A stretch of DNA of 64,000 nt. Origin: a virus. The stretch is taken from IMG/VR virus record IMGVR_UViG_3300025294_000239; one strand, given 5' to 3'. Position 1 is the first letter of the stretch; every line of letters begins with the position of its first letter. The position numbers were made by a program, and so were the translations under genes. The notes below the pieces were generated by a model. It was not told where the DNA came from and searched no databases. It was given only the letters and a program-made list of their open reading frames with translations. Of this stretch, positions 1-41,558 are shown piece by piece.

Positions 1-326
1 GATTCGGCGGCGTGTTGTATAGCGGCGTCGAGGAACATCTTCCACGCAGTGGCGCCCGTTTCCATGTGGCCGGCCAAGGTGATCGTCATCGCAGCCCAAC
101 GCTTGAAATCCAGGGCCTCAACACCGACAGCGAAGGCGTCAACAAGCGCTGTGGATAATTCGCGGCGCGGCGCGTGGCCGCACACCCACCATTGGTTTGC
201 AACGGCTTCGCGCAGATCAGCGGCCATATCAGCCACCAGCGCCGCACGCACGACCTCGGCAGACTGGCTGCCCACCAGTGCCGTGCCGTCCAAAAGCTTG
301 ATCGGGGGGAGGGAGGGGAGGTTCAT
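1..326 (-). CDS. Hypothetical early-left protein, 5' part (complete copy at 39219..39599)
   Basis: Same sequence as ORF 39219..39599; SD-like GAGG upstream. Confidence 0.6.
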   Translation of the reverse strand, partial: MNLPSLPPIKLLDGTALVGSQSAEVVRAALVADMAADLREAVANQWWVCGHAPRRELSTALVDAFAVGVEALDFKRWAAMTITLAGHMETGATAWKMFLDAAIQHAAE

Positions 327-327
327 T

Positions 328-507
328 TCAAATGTCCTCTTGTTCTTTGCGGTGGTGCCGGCGCGTCTCGCTGCGGTAGACGTGGATAACGGCGATGGTC
401 ATGCCCAGGGCCCAGGACATCAGCAGCGAATAGACTATGACCTCGCACGCCATGCGGATGACAGGGAGTTCGGCAATCAAGGCGGCATAGGCCTGGGCGA
501 TGGTCAT
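328..507 (-). CDS. 59-aa single-TM small protein (MTIAQAYAALIAELP...)
   Basis: GGAG SD 5 nt before ATG at 507; hydrophobic stretch VIVYSLLMSWALGMTIAVIHVY, basic/polar tail. Confidence 0.55.
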   Translation of the reverse strand: MTIAQAYAALIAELPVIRMACEVIVYSLLMSWALGMTIAVIHVYRSETRRHHRKEQEDI

Positions 508-662
508 TTCGGCTCCAGAAACTCGCGCAGCGCCGCATCGGCAGGGCGAGTAGGGGGTAATCGTTGATGCGCTTGGCGCCGGCTCGGATCGCGCGAACCG
601 CTTCCACAGAAAGCGGCTCCAGCGAGCCAACCTCGGCGGCTAGGCGGGCGGTGGCGGGCATG

Positions 663-983
663 TCAGCGCCAGGCGCGGATGAAAATGGCAGCGCTGATGA
701 AGCTGATCACCAGCAGAATCGGGAAACCAACGCCGAACGAAGGGAAAGTCATCGCGACAGGCCGCGCAAACAGCACCATGGAAAGCGCAAACCCGAGGCA
801 GCCGTGAACGAAAGACCCGGACCGTTCCAACTCTTGCTTGCGATGCGTGCTGGGGGCTGCTTGCTGCAACAGTGACCAGCGGTTGCCGCTGGATTTCCAG
901 ATCGAACCGTCAGGTGATTTCGCCACGCAGTCGTAGTAGTTGGAGCGGGCGCCGTCTTTGGGCATGAAGGAAAGCTTGATCAT
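663..983 (-). CDS. First gene of pL operon; ~106-aa protein with two C-terminal TM segments
   Basis: GGAG SD fits ATG at 983 (ORF track starts at 995); hydrophobic FALSMVLFARPVAM and FGVGFPILLVISFISAAIFI. Confidence 0.65.
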   Translation of the reverse strand: MIKLSFMPKDGARSNYYDCVAKSPDGSIWKSSGNRWSLLQQAAPSTHRKQELERSGSFVHGCLGFALSMVLFARPVAMTFPSFGVGFPILLVISFISAAIFIRAWR

Positions 984-1019
984 CATTTCTCCCATCGGTG
1001 TGCAGGTGTGATGGGATGA

Positions 1020-1048
1020 ATATTAGCCATAGCTAAGGCAACAAGCAA
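1020..1048 (-). promoter_or_regulatory. pL-like sigma70 promoter
   Basis: Minus strand TTGCTT (1048-1043), 17 nt, TAATAT (1025-1020); overlapped by two operator copies. Confidence 0.8.
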
Positions 1049-1061
1049 TAGCTATAGCTAA
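1023..1061. promoter_or_regulatory. Left operators (two 14-bp sites)
   Basis: TTAGCCATAGCTAA (1023-1036) and ATAGCTATAGCTAA (1048-1061), each one mismatch from the perfect palindrome TTAGCTATAGCTAA at 2053. Confidence 0.85.
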
Positions 1062-1081
1062 GTTTTTTTGTAACGCGCATG

Positions 1082-1102
1082 AAAAAGCCGCCCGTAGGCG
1101 GC
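1082..1102 (-). terminator. Intrinsic terminator for the cI/142-aa transcript
   Basis: GCCGCC-CGTA-GGCGGC stem with A5 on the left (U-tract on minus strand). Confidence 0.8.
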
Positions 1103-1124
1103 GTAGTGGCGGGCGGTGGCTCGG

Positions 1125-1553
1125 CTAAAACGGCAGCCAGTCAAGCCTGAAGCAGACGTTCATTTTCGAGCGGGTGCCGCTGTGATCGCCTGGTGTTGAG
1201 AGTTCCTGAACAGCATTGCGCCCGCGTTGCACGGCGTCGTTCATCGCCACCGTATACGCAAGATCCTCGCTGTCGACCATGTAAATAAACCGAGGGCGCA
1301 GGTATGCATTCAATTTTTCGAGGTCAGTTGTCGCTGCCCGCACGTCGCGAGCGGCTTCCGCTTTTTTCGCTGCGCTCATAGATGGAGTCTTCTCTGCGAT
1401 CGCGGCGTTGAGATTGGATTGCATAACAACCGTCTGCATGGGGGCTAGGCAGTACGCCGCGCGTATCTCGGTGTCGGTCGGCAATTGTGACGCCGACGCC
1501 ACGAAAGCGTGAAAGATGAACGCAACGGGAACATATCGAAGGTTTCGCCGCAT
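1125..1553 (-). CDS. 142-aa exported protein directly downstream of cI (rex position)
   Basis: Signal-peptide-like N-terminus MRRNLRYVPVAFIFHAFVASA; two Cys; same strand as cI, followed by terminator. Confidence 0.75.
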   Translation of the reverse strand: MRRNLRYVPVAFIFHAFVASASQLPTDTEIRAAYCLAPMQTVVMQSNLNAAIAEKTPSMSAAKKAEAARDVRAATTDLEKLNAYLRPRFIYMVDSEDLAYTVAMNDAVQRGRNAVQELSTPGDHSGTRSKMNVCFRLDWLPF

Positions 1554-1618
1554 TTTGTCACTCAGTGGGCAAAAATTTTCCGGTATCGGGGACCAACGCT
1601 AACCGCACCGCCTGCGTC

Positions 1619-1996
1619 TTAGGCGGCTTTCTCGTCCCCTTCGCTTTTCACAGGCGCTTCACCCAAAAAGGCGTCTACCTGTCGTCTAAGAGCATCTTCG
1701 ATACCTTTCTGTTGCGCTTCCGTGAGTTGCTGGAATCGCTCCCAAGGGACGCTATCGAAGGGCCAAAAGCTTTCCTCTGCCCGCTCCATTTGGCCTCTGC
1801 CATCTGCCAGCCAAGAGTCGCTGACTCCGAGCGCTCTCGCCGCGAGGACAAGGTTTCTACCCTTGAGGTTCTTCGTGCGCCCGTTAATCCAATTGAAAAC
1901 GGACGGGCCGCTGGCGCCTGTGGCGCGCACCAAATCGGCCTGCGACAAATTTGCCGCGGACATCGCAAGTTTAATGCGCTCAGACAACGTATTCAT
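1619..1996 (-). CDS. cI: Phage repressor, XRE/HTH_3 family, without S24 peptidase domain
   Basis: LSERIKLAM..LSQADLVRATGASGPSVFNWING..ARALGVSDSWLADGRG HTH; divergent from cro; only 125 aa. Confidence 0.88.
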   Translation of the reverse strand: MNTLSERIKLAMSAANLSQADLVRATGASGPSVFNWINGRTKNLKGRNLVLAARALGVSDSWLADGRGQMERAEESFWPFDSVPWERFQQLTEAQQKGIEDALRRQVDAFLGEAPVKSEGDEKAA

Positions 1997-2002
1997 CGCG
2001 TC

Positions 2003-2034
2003 ATCCTATTTGCCGAGCTGTTAGCGATGGCTTA
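2003..2034 (-). promoter_or_regulatory. pRM-like promoter with degenerate operator
   Basis: -10 TAGGAT (2008-2003) 6 nt before the cI ATG; poor -35; operator-like TTAGCGATGGCTTA at 2021-2034 (3 mismatches). Confidence 0.55.
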
Positions 2035-2040
2035 TTCCGC

Positions 2041-2069
2041 TTGCGGTTTAGGTTAGCTATAGCTAAGAT
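2041..2069 (+). promoter_or_regulatory. pR-like promoter with perfect palindromic operator
   Basis: TTGCGG (2041-2046), 17 nt, TAAGAT (2064-2069); TTAGCTATAGCTAA at 2053-2066. Confidence 0.85.
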
Positions 2070-2075
2070 GACGCC

Positions 2076-2285
2076 ATGGATACCTTGCACCCCGACTCCG
2101 CGACCATCGACGCCTTGGGCGGCACTGCCGCCGTTGCGCGCCTGTGTGAATGCAAACAGCCTTCGGTGACGAAGTGGCGAACTACTGGCATACCGCGCGC
2201 GCGGCGTCAGTACCTGGAGCTTCTCCGCCCAGATGTTTTCGGCAAGCCCGTTGCCCCTCCCGCCCAGGAGCCGGCCAATGCGTAG
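2076..2285 (+). CDS. cro: Cro-like repressor
   Basis: IDALGGTAAVARLCECKQPSVTKWRTTGIP..R..YL HTH pattern; divergent from cI. Confidence 0.85.
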   Translation: MDTLHPDSATIDALGGTAAVARLCECKQPSVTKWRTTGIPRARRQYLELLRPDVFGKPVAPPAQEPANA

Positions 2286-2397
2286 GGTCAAAACACCAAT
2301 GCCGTGGAAAGTGCGCAGGTCTCGGCAGCGGAGAGACAACCATATTCCCCTGCTCAAACGTGCCTTGATGAAGGCCCTCGGGCCAAAGGAAAACCCA

Positions 2398-2664
2398 ATG
2401 GAAAAGACCGTGAAATACGGGGAAATCCCGCAATCCGTGCAGGCGCAAATAGTCGCCCGTGCACTGGATGCGGCGTTCTCCGCCTGCCAAATGGGGGCTT
2501 CTACCGAAGCGGCAGCCGACGCCGAACGCGTAGCCCGCGCTGGCGTGGCTGCCTGGCAAATCGCCAATGGCAAAGAGGCCGGCTTCGACGTTGTTGAGAC
2601 TGCCACCGGGCAAGTGAATGTCCGGCCCGGTGGCAGCGCCGTCGACGCTAACGACCGCCTTTGA
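2398..2664 (+). CDS. Hypothetical 88-aa protein (start could be 2278)
   Basis: AAGGA SD before ATG 2398; Ala-rich helical composition. Confidence 0.55.
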   Translation: MEKTVKYGEIPQSVQAQIVARALDAAFSACQMGASTEAAADAERVARAGVAAWQIANGKEAGFDVVETATGQVNVRPGGSAVDANDRL

Positions 2665-2845
2665 TGGCTCGCAATATGTCTGTCCGTATAGCCACCGGAT
2701 CCACCTGCGCTGAAAGCACTGTTTTGCAGTGCGGGCAGCATAGGGTGATGCACCTGAAGGAATCGCCTAAGGGCACGCCGCCCTCGACGGCACCGAAGTG
2801 CAGCCGTTGGACCGCTTTCTTGCAATGCGGGCAAATCCCGTCCAT
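2648..2845 (-). CDS. 65-aa counter-oriented zinc-ribbon protein (CPHC...CPHC)
   Basis: Strong SD ACAGGAGGGG 5 nt before ATG 2845; two CxxC motifs. Confidence 0.75.
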   Translation of the reverse strand: MDGICPHCKKAVQRLHFGAVEGGVPLGDSFRCITLCCPHCKTVLSAQVDPVAIRTDILRAIKGGR

Positions 2846-2913
2846 GAGAACCCCTCCTGTGGGTCGTTTCGGTAGTGGTTGGTCGCCACGCCCGGGGAAT
2901 CCGGGCAGCGCTG

Positions 2914-2943
2914 ATCGTATCCGCAGCGAGGGGGTCTCGCCAA
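2914..2943 (-). promoter_or_regulatory. Candidate promoter for the zinc-ribbon gene
   Basis: TTGGCG (2943-2938), 18 nt, TACGAT (2919-2914). Confidence 0.4.
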
Positions 2944-3025
2944 TCACGTTTCTTTTCCATGCCGCCAGTCTGCGCGGCCCCGCGTGCAGCCGCACGCAAG
3001 CATTTTTTCGCAAGGTTGAATCGCG

Positions 3026-3334
3026 ATGAACGCGCAAGTTGTGCAATTCCCCAGCCTCCGGAAACCGTCGTTTGAACGGCGCTTCCGTGAAGCTTTGACC
3101 GATCCCCGGACGAGGGCGCCGGTACGGGACGCCATTGGCTGGGATGATTCCCAGGTGTCCCGCTTCCTGTCGGGCCAGATGGGCCTGAATATCGAAAAGA
3201 TCGATGCTGCTGTCACCGCGCTCGACCTGCGCGTCGTCACGCGCACCTACCTCGATGCGGTCTGCGAGATTGGCAAGACAGGCATGAACTGTTTCTGCGC
3301 TCGCGAAGGCTTCGGGGATTGCGGATCGCACTGA
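3026..3334 (+). CDS. cII: CII-like transcriptional regulator
   Basis: Position between cro and replication gene; HTH-like VRDAIGWDDSQVSRFLSGQMGLNIEKID; TTGC repeats in its first codons on the minus strand. Confidence 0.6.
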   Translation: MNAQVVQFPSLRKPSFERRFREALTDPRTRAPVRDAIGWDDSQVSRFLSGQMGLNIEKIDAAVTALDLRVVTRTYLDAVCEIGKTGMNCFCAREGFGDCGSH

Positions 3335-3336
3335 CC

Positions 3337-3561
3337 ATGCCCAGCGCGCGCCCCGGCCCCCTCTGCTGGCTCGCCATCGGCTTTTGCGAGCAGGAAGCCT
3401 TCCGGCGGTTCGCCCATGCGCGCACGTCCGACGAGGCGAAAGCCTTCATCTTGAATACCTGCGGCGTCGCGTCGCGCAAGGAACTGGACACGGACCCGAA
3501 CGCGGCCCGGCTGTTCCATGAGCGCGTGCGGCGCCCGTTTGCCTATGGATCGAATGCATGA
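3337..3561 (+). CDS. Hypothetical 74-aa phage protein
   Basis: Coupled ORF; CGVASRKELD..AARLFHERVRRPF motif of small lambdoid proteins; ATGA overlap with next gene. Confidence 0.6.
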   Translation: MPSARPGPLCWLAIGFCEQEAFRRFAHARTSDEAKAFILNTCGVASRKELDTDPNAARLFHERVRRPFAYGSNA

Positions 3562-4418
3562 GCCATCAGGCTGTCGCATGGGCGCTTGAGCAGCCCGTCA
3601 ATCATTCTCCGGCCAAGTTCATCTTGACCGTTATGGCGCATCACGTCGCGGCTCGTCAACGCCCGTTTGTCGCCTTCGCTTCGATCACCGCGCTCTCAAA
3701 ACAAACCGGGCAGGACCGCAAGACGGTCATCGCCAACATCAAACGGCTCACCGATGGCGGCTTCTTGGTGGACACCGGCGAGCGTGCTGGCGTCACTAAA
3801 TCGGTCGTGGTTTTCGAACTCGCGCAGCCCGGAAGCAGTACCGAAATTGGGACTGCTTCCGAGGCTTCAAGCGGTACCAGTTTTGGGACACCTTCCAATG
3901 ACGAAGCAGTACCAGATTTGGGACTGCTAAGCAGTACCAGTTTTGGTACCGCTTCACCCGAAATTGAGGGAAGCAGTACCAGTTTAGGGACTGCTTCGGT
4001 CGAAAGCAGTACCAAATTTGGGACACCTTCGGAAGGGGAAGCAGTACCAGTTTTCCCTACAGAACAGTATTTAAAAGATATAGGTAATACCGTCTTAAAG
4101 AGTAATACCGTGGTGCGCACAGCGAAAACGCCAGCGAATCGCGGTTCGAGGCTGCCGAACGACTGGGTGTTGCCCAAGACCTGGGGCGACGAGGCCATGG
4201 CGATCTGCCCGACGTTCTCCCGTGATCGCATCCGCTCCATCGCCGCCGAATTCCGCGACTACTGGGTCGCCGTGGCAGGGCAGAAGGGCTGCAAGCTCGA
4301 CTGGTCAGCCACTTGGCGCAACTGGGTGCGCAAGGAAGCGAAGGCCGAGGCGAACTCGCGCAGCCGTGGCCGTGGCTACAGCACCGGCGAAGTCGACCAG
4401 TGGGGAATCCCGCGATGA
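3558..4418 (+). CDS. Replication initiator (lambda O-like; N-terminal HTH)
   Basis: N-terminal AKFILTVMA..SITALSKQTGQDRKTVIANIKRL; internal iterons; C-terminal FRDYW...KLDWSATWRNWVRK. Confidence 0.85.
   Translation: MSHQAVAWALEQPVNHSPAKFILTVMAHHVAARQRPFVAFASITALSKQTGQDRKTVIANIKRLTDGGFLVDTGERAGVTKSVVVFELAQPGSSTEIGTASEASSGTSFGTPSNDEAVPDLGLLSSTSFGTASPEIEGSSTSLGTASVESSTKFGTPSEGEAVPVFPTEQYLKDIGNTVLKSNTVVRTAKTPANRGSRLPNDWVLPKTWGDEAMAICPTFSRDRIRSIAAEFRDYWVAVAGQKGCKLDWSATWRNWVRKEAKAEANSRSRGRGYSTGEVDQWGIPR
3832..4110 (+). repeat. Replication origin: seven iteron-like repeats plus AT-rich tract
   Basis: AGC(A/G)GTACC cores at 3834, 3870, 3905, 3930, 3972, 4005, 4040, in ~28-bp units such as GAAGCAGTACC-N6-GGGACTGCTTC; AT-rich ~4058-4110. 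Confidence 0.85.
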
Positions 4419-4750
4419 GAGGCCAGGTCACGCTCACGAAGGCCCGAAAAGCCGGCTGGGATATCCCCGCCGTGTTCGTGATCGACCTGCCGTTTGATGC
4501 GCCGACGCGCACCTTCCTGGATCCCGAAAAGTCCCTCATGTGGGGACCGTTCGCCGAGGTCAACACCGGCCCGAGCGACATGCCGGCCATCCTCGACTTC
4601 CGCTTTGCCGAAGGCTGCCGTGTGCTGGTGTGCGGCCTTGACGAATCCCGCGTGCGTGCCCTGATGCGCCGCATCCGCGACTTCTCCCCCTCCGAAATCA
4701 TCGGGTCCGGCTTCGGATCCATCCTGCGCTGGGCGCCCAAGGAATCATGA
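4415..4750 (+). CDS. Hypothetical 111-aa protein between initiator and helicase
   Basis: ATGA overlaps with both neighbours. Confidence 0.7.
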   Translation: MRGQVTLTKARKAGWDIPAVFVIDLPFDAPTRTFLDPEKSLMWGPFAEVNTGPSDMPAILDFRFAEGCRVLVCGLDESRVRALMRRIRDFSPSEIIGSGFGSILRWAPKES

Positions 4751-5688
4751 ACTCCGTTTTCTCCAACGACGACATCGACTTCGCCGAGTACTACGACGAG
4801 GCCGAACCCATTGCCAAGGTCATTCCGGCCGAGGCCTGGGGCGAAGAGCTGGTCAAGCTGCACAGCAATCCGACGCGGCTGTCCGGCGCCAAACTGCCCT
4901 GGAAATCCACCCAGGAAATCATGCGATTTCGCCCAGGCGAAACCACGCTGTGGGCCGGATACAGCGGCCATGGAAAGAGTCTGGCGCTCGGCAATGCCGT
5001 CCTGGGTTTCACGGCTCAGGGCGAGAAATCCTGCATCGCCTCGTTCGAGATGGCGCCGCTGGCCACGCTCGAACGCATGGAGCGGCAGGCCGCCATGGTG
5101 GCCACGCCTGCGGACGAATTCACGCCCGGGTTCATGGCCTGGTTGCGTGACAAGCTGTGGATCTACAACCACATCGGCCATGCCGACCTGCGCACGCTGT
5201 ACGCCGTCATCCGCTACTGCGGCCGCAAGCTTGGCATCCAGCATTTCGTGGTCGATTCGCTCATGCGCTGCGTGCGTGGTGAGGACGACTACAACGGCCA
5301 GAAGGACTTCGTCATTGCCATGACTGCGCTGGCGAAGGAACTGAACATGCACATCCACATCGTGCACCACATGCGCAAAGGCGAAACCGAGGAAAAGGCG
5401 CCCGGCAAGTCGGACGTCAAGGGCAGCAACTCGATCACCGACAACGTGGACCAGGGCGTGATCGTCTGGCGCAACAAGTTCAAGGAGCAGCGCGTGGAGC
5501 GCGCCCTTTCGGCCGGCGATCCCATCCCGGACGACGTGCATGCGATGCCTGACGCCTTCGTCATCTTCATCAAAAACCGCGTCACCGGCGAGGAAACGCG
5601 GGTGCCGCTGTGGTTCCACCGCGAGAGCATGCAGTTCACAGGAAGCTCCCGCCGCGTGCCGGTCAATTTCCTTGGGAGCCTGGTATGA
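4747..5688 (+). CDS. Replicative helicase, DnaB/T7 gp4-type (no primase domain)
   Basis: Walker A GYSGHGKS, Walker B HFVVDSL, HIHIVHHMRK, DVKGSNSITDNVD. Confidence 0.88.
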   Translation: MNSVFSNDDIDFAEYYDEAEPIAKVIPAEAWGEELVKLHSNPTRLSGAKLPWKSTQEIMRFRPGETTLWAGYSGHGKSLALGNAVLGFTAQGEKSCIASFEMAPLATLERMERQAAMVATPADEFTPGFMAWLRDKLWIYNHIGHADLRTLYAVIRYCGRKLGIQHFVVDSLMRCVRGEDDYNGQKDFVIAMTALAKELNMHIHIVHHMRKGETEEKAPGKSDVKGSNSITDNVDQGVIVWRNKFKEQRVERALSAGDPIPDDVHAMPDAFVIFIKNRVTGEETRVPLWFHRESMQFTGSSRRVPVNFLGSLV

Positions 5689-6275
5689 ACCAAGCCGATA
5701 TCGCACTGGATCCGATGGCCGCCGTCATGGACCCGTTTCCAGTCATCGCCAAGCACTTGGGCCTTGAAGCCGCCCAGTCCGGCCTGTTCGCGCCGGAGCC
5801 CACCGCGGGCGTGAACGTCTGCATTCTGGCCCTGGACCTGGGTACCAAGACCGGTTACGCGGTGCGCAAGCGCGACGGCAAGGTGGTGCACGGCACCATG
5901 TCCTTCGCCCCGCGTGCGAGCTGGAGCGCCGGCCAGCGCTGGCTGCGCTTCCGGTCCTGGCTCGGCGAAGTGCTGGACCTGCACCAGGTGCACAAGATCG
6001 TCGTAGAGCATGTCAGCTTTCACGCTGGGGTGCGTGATGCCCACTGCTACGGCGCCTTCCGCGCGCTGGTGGAAATGGCCGCCGACACCCGCCGCATCGA
6101 GTTGGTGGGCACGAACGTCCAGACCATCAAACGCCACTGGACCGGCAAAGGCGGCGCCGACAAGGCCGCCATGATCGAACAGGCCCGCATTCGCGGCTTC
6201 CGTCCCGAGACAGATAACGACGCCGATGCCTTGGCCATCCTGGACTGGGCCGTCGCACAGGAGCGCAAATCATGA
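5685..6275 (+). CDS. RuvC-like Holliday junction resolvase
   Basis: ILALDLG, IVVE, IKRHWTGKGGADKAAM, DNDADALAI acidic motifs. Confidence 0.85.
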   Translation: MNQADIALDPMAAVMDPFPVIAKHLGLEAAQSGLFAPEPTAGVNVCILALDLGTKTGYAVRKRDGKVVHGTMSFAPRASWSAGQRWLRFRSWLGEVLDLHQVHKIVVEHVSFHAGVRDAHCYGAFRALVEMAADTRRIELVGTNVQTIKRHWTGKGGADKAAMIEQARIRGFRPETDNDADALAILDWAVAQERKS

Positions 6276-40891: not shown

Positions 40892-41269
40892 TTAGGCGGC
40901 TTTCTCGTCCCCTTCGCTTTTCACAGGCGCTTCACCCAAAAAGGCGTCTACCTGTCGTCTAAGAGCATCTTCGATACCTTTCTGTTGCGCTTCCGTGAGT
41001 TGCTGGAATCGCTCCCAAGGGACGCTATCGAAGGGCCAAAAGCTTTCCTCTGCCCGCTCCATTTGGCCTCTGCCATCTGCCAGCCAAGAGTCGCTGACTC
41101 CGAGCGCTCTCGCCGCGAGGACAAGGTTTCTACCCTTGAGGTTCTTCGTGCGCCCGTTAATCCAATTGAAAACGGACGGGCCGCTGGCGCCTGTGGCGCG
41201 CACCAAATCGGCCTGCGACAAATTTGCCGCGGACATCGCAAGTTTAATGCGCTCAGACAACGTATTCAT
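40892..41269 (-). CDS. cI: Repressor (second copy)
   Basis: Repeat of 1619..1996. Confidence 0.88.
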   Translation of the reverse strand: MNTLSERIKLAMSAANLSQADLVRATGASGPSVFNWINGRTKNLKGRNLVLAARALGVSDSWLADGRGQMERAEESFWPFDSVPWERFQQLTEAQQKGIEDALRRQVDAFLGEAPVKSEGDEKAA

Positions 41270-41348
41270 CGCGTCATCCTATTTGCCGAGCTGTTAGCGA
41301 TGGCTTATTCCGCTTGCGGTTTAGGTTAGCTATAGCTAAGATGACGCC

Positions 41349-41558
41349 ATGGATACCTTGCACCCCGACTCCGCGACCATCGACGCCTTGGGCGGCACTG
41401 CCGCCGTTGCGCGCCTGTGTGAATGCAAACAGCCTTCGGTGACGAAGTGGCGAACTACTGGCATACCGCGCGCGCGGCGTCAGTACCTGGAGCTTCTCCG
41501 CCCAGATGTTTTCGGCAAGCCCGTTGCCCCTCCCGCCCAGGAGCCGGCCAATGCGTAG
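41349..41558 (+). CDS. cro: Cro-like repressor (second copy)
   Basis: Repeat of 2076..2285. Confidence 0.85.
   Translation: MDTLHPDSATIDALGGTAAVARLCECKQPSVTKWRTTGIPRARRQYLELLRPDVFGKPVAPPAQEPANA

Follow-up and report, generated by a model that had tools for sequence, protein, structure and literature searches.

In the stretch of viral DNA analysed here (64,000 nt, hereafter the window), a gene for a cI-like immunity repressor and a gene for a Cro-like lytic regulator face away from each other across a 79-bp gap, and this pairing of divergent HTH repressor and Cro-type genes is the gene layout of a lambdoid CI/Cro switch (Table 1). An element of 39,273 bp, exactly circularly permuted, makes up the window: positions 1-24727 are the same as 39274-64000, with 0 mismatches over 24,727 nt, so that all features up to 24727, including the switch, are present twice. 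The element has a GC content of 63% and its DNA comes from a rhizosphere metagenome. Further genes downstream of cro encode an O-like initiator and a DnaB-like helicase, and the repressor is also encoded on contigs of up to 1.37 Mb, which argues for a temperate phage or prophage. The locus is best read as the OR-type immunity switch of a lambda-like temperate phage, 39.3 kb long, whose host is a proteobacterium and probably Xanthomonadales-like. Relatives of Cro are found in genomes of Stenotrophomonas, Rhodanobacter, Comamonas, Variovorax, and Methylobacterium, and by tblastn against phage records also in phages of Pseudomonas, Xanthomonas, and Ralstonia. A blastn search of phage records with window positions 1500-2700 gave no match, and Rfam gave 0 matches in window positions 1-6000.

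Table 1. Features of the switch and of the OL/PL region, in window coordinates
Feature	Position	Strand	Basis or remark
PL-type promoter	-35 TTGCTT 1048-1043, -10 TAATAT 1025-1020	-	17-nt spacer
OL operator pair	1023..1061		1023-1036 perfect; 1048-1061, 1 mismatch; 25 bp apart
cI-like immunity repressor, 125 aa, HTH only, without S24 peptidase domain	1619..1996	-	Pfam and phrog profiles
Inverted repeat, left arm: cI -10, gap, ATG, codons 2-4	1985..2008		Repeat search
PRM-type -10 TAGGAT, contains AGGA	2003..2008	-	6 nt before cI ATG
Operator O2 TTAGCGATGGCTTA, 1 mismatch	2021..2034		-25..-38 of cI start; -42..-55 of cro start
PR-type -35 TTGCGG, 3/6 versus TTGACA	2041..2046	+	17-nt spacer
Operator O1 TTAGCTATAGCTAA, perfect palindrome	2053..2066		-23..-10 of cro start; overlaps cro -10
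PR-type -10 TAAGAT	2064..2069	+	6 nt before cro ATG
Inverted repeat, right arm: cro -10, gap, ATG, codons 2-4	2064..2087		Repeat search
Cro-like lytic regulator, 69 aa	2076..2285	+	phrog_8008; JGI record calls same 69-aa gene
128-aa gene	2278..2664	+	JGI gene call and sequence; ATG overlaps cro stop by 8 nt
Switch, second copy	41267..41351		Circular permutation, offset 39,273

The repressor scores 24.3 bits against Pfam HTH_3 (PF01381; gathering cutoff 23) and matches phrog_4, 'transcriptional repressor', at E 6e-15, and its N-terminal domain resembles residues 2-62 of the 434 repressor (E 4e-5) at low sequence similarity. A search for homologues returned the identical protein and one match at 52% identity and nothing else, with all encoding contigs sharing the same locus; a scan of genome contigs gave no repressor relatives. 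Across 27 relatives the N-terminus M-x-T-L-A/S-E-R is kept from residue 1, and an in-frame TAG lies four codons 5' of the cI ATG, which together fix the cI start as the ATG at 1996. A start at Met12, served by a promoter inside the gene for which O2 would lie at a lambda-like -42, was rejected because conservation at the protein level covers residues 1-11 but not Met12.

The Cro-like protein matches phrog_8008 at E 1.2e-14, with its residue 1 aligned to profile position 1, and the Cro of Xylella prophage Xfaso1 (3bd1) at E 0.011, again at low sequence similarity. Its scores against Pfam YdaS_toxin (PF15943; 21.8 bits) and P22_Cro (PF14549; 17.9 bits) fall under the gathering cutoffs of 30 and 30.2, respectively. 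A start upstream of the assigned ATG is excluded by an in-frame TAA at 2064-2066, which forms the first three bases of the cro -10, and the first alternative further into the gene is codon 4, a TTG that has no SD motif.

The 128-aa gene that follows cro is likely translationally coupled to it. The same rightward early operon also contains, on the minus strand at 2648-2845, a gene call for a 65-aa zinc-ribbon protein (CPHC...CPHC). A promoter-like stretch lies upstream of this gene, and the gene could be the source of a PRE-like transcript running antisense through cro. A terminator-like hairpin (GCGTGCAGCCGCACGC) followed by a T-run lies at 2982-3007 (+), between the cro operon and a 102-aa DNA-binding gene at 3026; its position is tR1-like, and no N-like antiterminator was recognised. 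Within the O-like replication initiator gene, 3832-3955 holds the sole other 24-nt inverted repeat of the element with at least 20/24 matches. This region encodes repetitive GT[AP]S-type peptide repeats and, by analogy with lambda O, may be an origin with iterons.

Operators and promoter geometry at the two start codons

The operators are 14-bp palindromes of the type TTAGC-N4-GCTAA, and O1 and O2 are 32 bp apart. Sites with 0-1 mismatch to TTAGCNNNNGCTAA number four in the element and occur only at 1023-1061 and 2021-2066, so that, as in lambdoid switches, repeated palindromic operators lie over the promoters and a second set lies at PL. The PL region has the same layout of an operator over the -10 as the cro side, but its first gene, with its ATG at 986 or 983, begins some 20-30 nt past the predicted transcription start and is preceded by GGGAG; it is leadered, unlike predicted cro, and the phage thus uses leaders and SD-like motifs elsewhere. 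The repressor is predicted to bind these 14-bp operators, and at O1, over the cro -10, it would shut off PR. O2 would be weaker and would modulate the promoter of the repressor itself, upward or downward. In nearly all relatives, as here, O2 stands 25 nt from the cI ATG. Its centre, near -31.5 of the cI start, covers the -35 position of the proposed cI promoter and is not at the activating position of lambda OR2 (-42), so cI may be maintained otherwise than by activation of the lambda type.

Among relatives, three or four operators occupy gaps of 71-92 bp, and the O1-O2 spacing varies (loci L001, L007, and L009 versus L002 and L010). Their repressors range from 115 to 236 aa in length, which suggests that a cleavable C-terminal domain is probably present in some of them and missing from others, as it is from the present repressor.

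Read directly, the minus strand has TAGGAT at 2008-2003, GACGCG at 2002-1997, and ATG at 1996-1994, and the plus strand has TAAGAT at 2064-2069, GACGCC at 2070-2075, and ATG at 2076-2078, just as the earlier note had reported. The cro -35 and the 17-nt spacer that it gave are likewise present, but its description of that -35 as good was too generous, since three matches in six make it moderate; relatives have TTGAC-type hexamers in this place. By consensus both promoters are weak, PR scoring 7/12, and PRM scoring 4/6 at the -10 and at best 3/6 at the -35 across a 19-nt spacer. A default promoter scan (9/12 threshold) reported no promoter at the switch, and no other minus-strand promoter candidate was found in the 79-bp gap.

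Comparative evidence bears most heavily on cro. Cro homologues were collected from 64 viral and 6 genomic loci, which yielded 56 distinct promoter regions. In 25 of these the best -35/-10 pair stops 6 nt short of the cro ATG, and in 41 the distance is 5-8 nt; for several of the others, inspection by eye shows the same arrangement at an in-frame ATG nearby. An abutting promoter of at least 8/12 is found at 34/56 cro loci versus 14/766 control open reading frames of the same loci, although the loci are phylogenetically related and p-values overstate their independence. Conversely, a strict SD motif precedes 1/56 cro genes versus 200/766 controls, and cro here has none, as the earlier note had observed; the cro start codon is ATG in all 56. 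Five nearly identical loci (L017-L025) differ from one another in the promoter spacer and in the 8 nt that separate -10 from ATG, and nowhere else: length, hexamers, and operators stay constant, a pattern expected of a promoter followed directly by a start codon and not of a ribosome-binding site. The layout spans low-GC and high-GC hosts in three proteobacterial classes. On these comparisons, cro is probably leaderless.

On the cI side, TAG[GC][AC]T stands exactly 6 nt before the ATG (-12 to -7) in 21/27 distinct repressor relatives. Much of this conservation can be explained by operator function, because in most relatives the hexamer forms part of a third operator, O3 (TTAGS-N4-SCTAA), which ends on the A of the ATG. 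Several features nevertheless point to a -10 role for the hexamer as well. Position -7 is T in 23/23 O3 (start-proximal) sites versus 6/56 other operators on the same strand; relatives L010, L015, and L016 have TAGCAT or TAGCCT and no AGG; and the present phage keeps TAGGAT at -12 to -7 even though it lacks O3 and has TTAGC as its operator half-site. The sequence AGGA, 7 nt before the cI ATG, had been proposed to double as an SD when cI is read from an upstream transcript. It occurs in 7/27 relatives, and the three without AGG indicate that an SD role is not what conserves the hexamer; from the sequence, its use as an SD on a longer, read-through PRE-like transcript is conceivable.

It could instead be that only cro is leaderless, and that a promoter placed farther upstream serves cI, such as that of the zinc-ribbon gene near 2913-2941 or one inside cro, with translation from an internal AUG and the AGGA of TAGGAT as a weak SD, the hexamer then being an operator remnant or an SD. 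The placement of AGGA would suit such a scheme, as would a poor -35 covered by O2 in the abutting cI promoter, a minus-strand gene with its own promoter-like stretch on the far side of cro, and a search of the minus strand from 2648 to the cI start that detected no terminator. It fits less well with the three relatives that keep TA...T at -12 to -7 without AGG, with a T at -7 specific to the start-proximal site, and with a geometry equal to that of lambda PRM. Phage PY54 offers something to each side: its strongest cI promoter activity lies far upstream, at the 5' end of cro, but RACE found AUG-initiated cI mRNA only (PMC4488713). Restriction of leaderless expression to cro seems unlikely, though it deserves to be taken seriously, and we favour, with less assurance than for cro, a leaderless cI.

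Thus the comparative support for the earlier proposal that both proteins are made from leaderless mRNA, which we too infer, is strong for cro and reasonable for cI. A -10 located 5-8 nt before the start is kept in relatives on both sides (41/56 for cro; 21/27 for cI), and both start codons are ATG, with no SD at cro and an ambiguous case at cI, where AGGA lies in the -10. In predicted folds of the first 30-50 nt of both mRNAs the AUG is unpaired, and the folds do not differ from shuffles (z -0.6 to +0.8).

A mirror repeat over both start regions

The two start regions are mirror images of each other. The 13/15 match that the earlier note had seen between them is correct and understates the repeat, which extends to arms of 24 nt with 20/24 matches (83% complementary) and 55 nt between them, and takes in codons 2-4 of both genes (MNTL versus MDTL). 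The repeat exceeds chance: 24-nt inverted repeats that match at 20 or more positions across a gap of 20-100 nt occur at two loci of the 39.3-kb element versus a mean of 0.2 per block shuffle, and when the arms are anchored on both ATGs the binomial p is ~3e-7, or ~3e-5 with the ATG and four -10 positions forced.

The symmetry is nevertheless not part of the conserved design. When the check for conservation in related phages that the earlier note had suggested was made, the repeat proved absent: the cI-side and cro-side 24-mers of the same locus agree at 20/24 positions here, but at a mean of 9.8 and a maximum of 16 (L009) in 26 relatives, near the level of pairs drawn from different loci (mean 9.5, s.d. 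2.2). The particulars of the cI side suggest where the likeness came from. GACGCG stands there in place of the proximal half of O3 seen in relatives, and cI Leu4 is encoded by TTG, as in cro, and by CTN in every relative with Leu at this place. A short patch, from about -12 to +12, may have been copied from the cro side to the cI side, which would have removed the start-proximal O3 of the relatives and kept the geometry of -10, 6 nt, and ATG. Judged from these sequences, a short cro-to-cI conversion confined to this lineage is the most likely origin of the mirror.

Shared constraints might also have produced the likeness by coincidence, without copying or function, given a TAnnnT hexamer, a GC-rich gap, an ATG, and similar N-termini. 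Both sides do need the same promoter and start geometry, relatives also begin with M-[NS]-T and M-D-T, and L009 reaches 16/24. Forcing the shared positions still leaves p at ~3e-5, however, and the 6-nt gaps, which vary freely among close relatives, match at 5/6 positions here; as the synonymous TTG for Leu4 is in addition unique to the present cI, we hold coincidence to be improbable. Function is the other possibility, with the arms as paired sites for Cro or a host factor on both promoters, or as recombination sites that invert the 55-bp operator segment. A repeat so far beyond chance might suggest this, and the mirror replaces O3, whose role it may have taken over. Yet the arms are kept in no relative, the element has no further copy of the 12-mer with <1 mismatch, and shuffled sequence yields the 12-mer no less often, 55 bp is very short for synapsis, and no invertase was recognised adjoining the repeat. 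Reads of one DNA run, which may be that from which the window derives, yielded a single, identical contig, free of joints and of any inverted form, a result that a rare inversion would escape. Functional arms therefore appear very improbable, and conversion of the cI side from the cro side remains the origin that we prefer.

The switch among known systems

On the basis of established gene identities, start codons, and operators, and of a geometry whose conservation is equally established, the locus can be described as two back-to-back sigma-70-type promoters, each with a -10 hexamer 6 nt before an ATG. Transcription would start at the A of each ATG, at 1996 (-) and 2076 (+), 80 bp apart, and repressor and Cro would both be translated from leaderless mRNA. 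To this whole explanation, a doubly leaderless OR-type switch with a lineage-specific mirror overlay, we assign a probability of about 0.6, as a reading of sequence and its comparison.

The obvious reference point is lambda, in which PRM has the form TAGATT-N6-ATG and cI is leaderless, cro has a leader with a strong SD, and OR comprises three 17-bp operators, OR2 lying at the activating position -42. The present switch resembles it in its divergent cI and cro genes with starts ~80 bp apart, in a -10 located 6 nt before cI, in palindromic operators that overlap both promoters, and in a second operator set at PL. It differs in having two 14-bp operators, with O2 near -31.5, and a repressor without the RecA-sensitive C-terminal domain. 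Operators of 14 bp and a related repressor N-terminal domain are shared with phage 434, whose operator reads ACAA-N6-TTGT in contrast to the TTAGC-N4-GCTAA found here. Another switch with leaderless divergent transcripts is reportedly that of mycobacteriophage BPs.

Closest in design is the immB region of PY54, in which cI and cro each give one mRNA species that starts at the AUG, as determined by 5' RACE (Hammerl et al. 2015; PMC4488713). There, too, a prophage repressor and cro diverge, and the start codon of cro follows directly on its promoter (PMC4488713). A doubly leaderless cI/cro switch is thus already known, and the present layout is real but not new, which weakens the unusualness that the earlier note had implied. 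The two systems also differ: PY54 is the linear-plasmid prophage of an enterobacterium (a Yersinia telomere phage), its Cro binds a single 16-bp OR3 in place of the two 14-bp operators found here, and no mirror repeat like the 24-nt one of the present phage is reported for it (PMC4488713). A tblastn search of 50,697 phage records with the present Cro gave 8 matches, with 0 telomere phages (PY54, N15, or phiKO2) among them, PY54 being absent at E 1e-3. The Cro of PY54 is thus not detectably related, and the likeness is one of design and not of descent.

Single leaderless members of such pairs have precedents as well, among them lambda cI, to which PMC8630535 refers as the leaderless precedent, and, in prophage CP-933P of Escherichia coli O157:H7, the short HTH repressor gene paaR2, shown to be leaderless by RACE and by sequencing of the protein N-terminus (Jurenas et al. 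2021; PMC8630535). As here, paaR2 diverges from the gene for a Cro analogue, of the YdaS type (ydaS-ydaT), across an operator region of 97 bp, but leaderless status is reported for paaR2 only and the locus carries a toxin-antitoxin pair (PMC8630535), whereas the present Cro falls under the YdaS Pfam cutoff. Leaderless mRNAs account for 14% of those of Xanthomonas, where no consensus for an SD is apparent (PMC3300014), which makes leaderless starts unremarkable in the likely hosts.

A far stronger claim can be framed, namely that leaderless expression of both proteins is an obligatory, family-wide design in alpha-, beta-, and gamma-proteobacterial prophages that ties lysis-lysogeny to 70S/leaderless initiation, and that the copied 24-nt cassette, by making promoters and mRNA 5' ends near-identical, lets one physiological signal act equally on both arms here. 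We consider this quite unlikely. The 24-nt mirror cassette in place of O3 is a lineage-specific curiosity, and our understanding of such switches is unchanged by the finding. For genome annotation, it means that the starts of Cro and repressor genes in such phages should not be shifted to find an SD, and for experiment it supplies a small natural promoter pair, putatively leaderless, on which leaderless translation can be studied in hosts other than E. coli. For the family as a whole, the layout of one studied phage, PY54, is extended to ~50 related proteobacterial prophage switches as a modest new generalisation, with -35, 17 nt, -10, ~6 nt, and ATG as the conserved arrangement on both sides.
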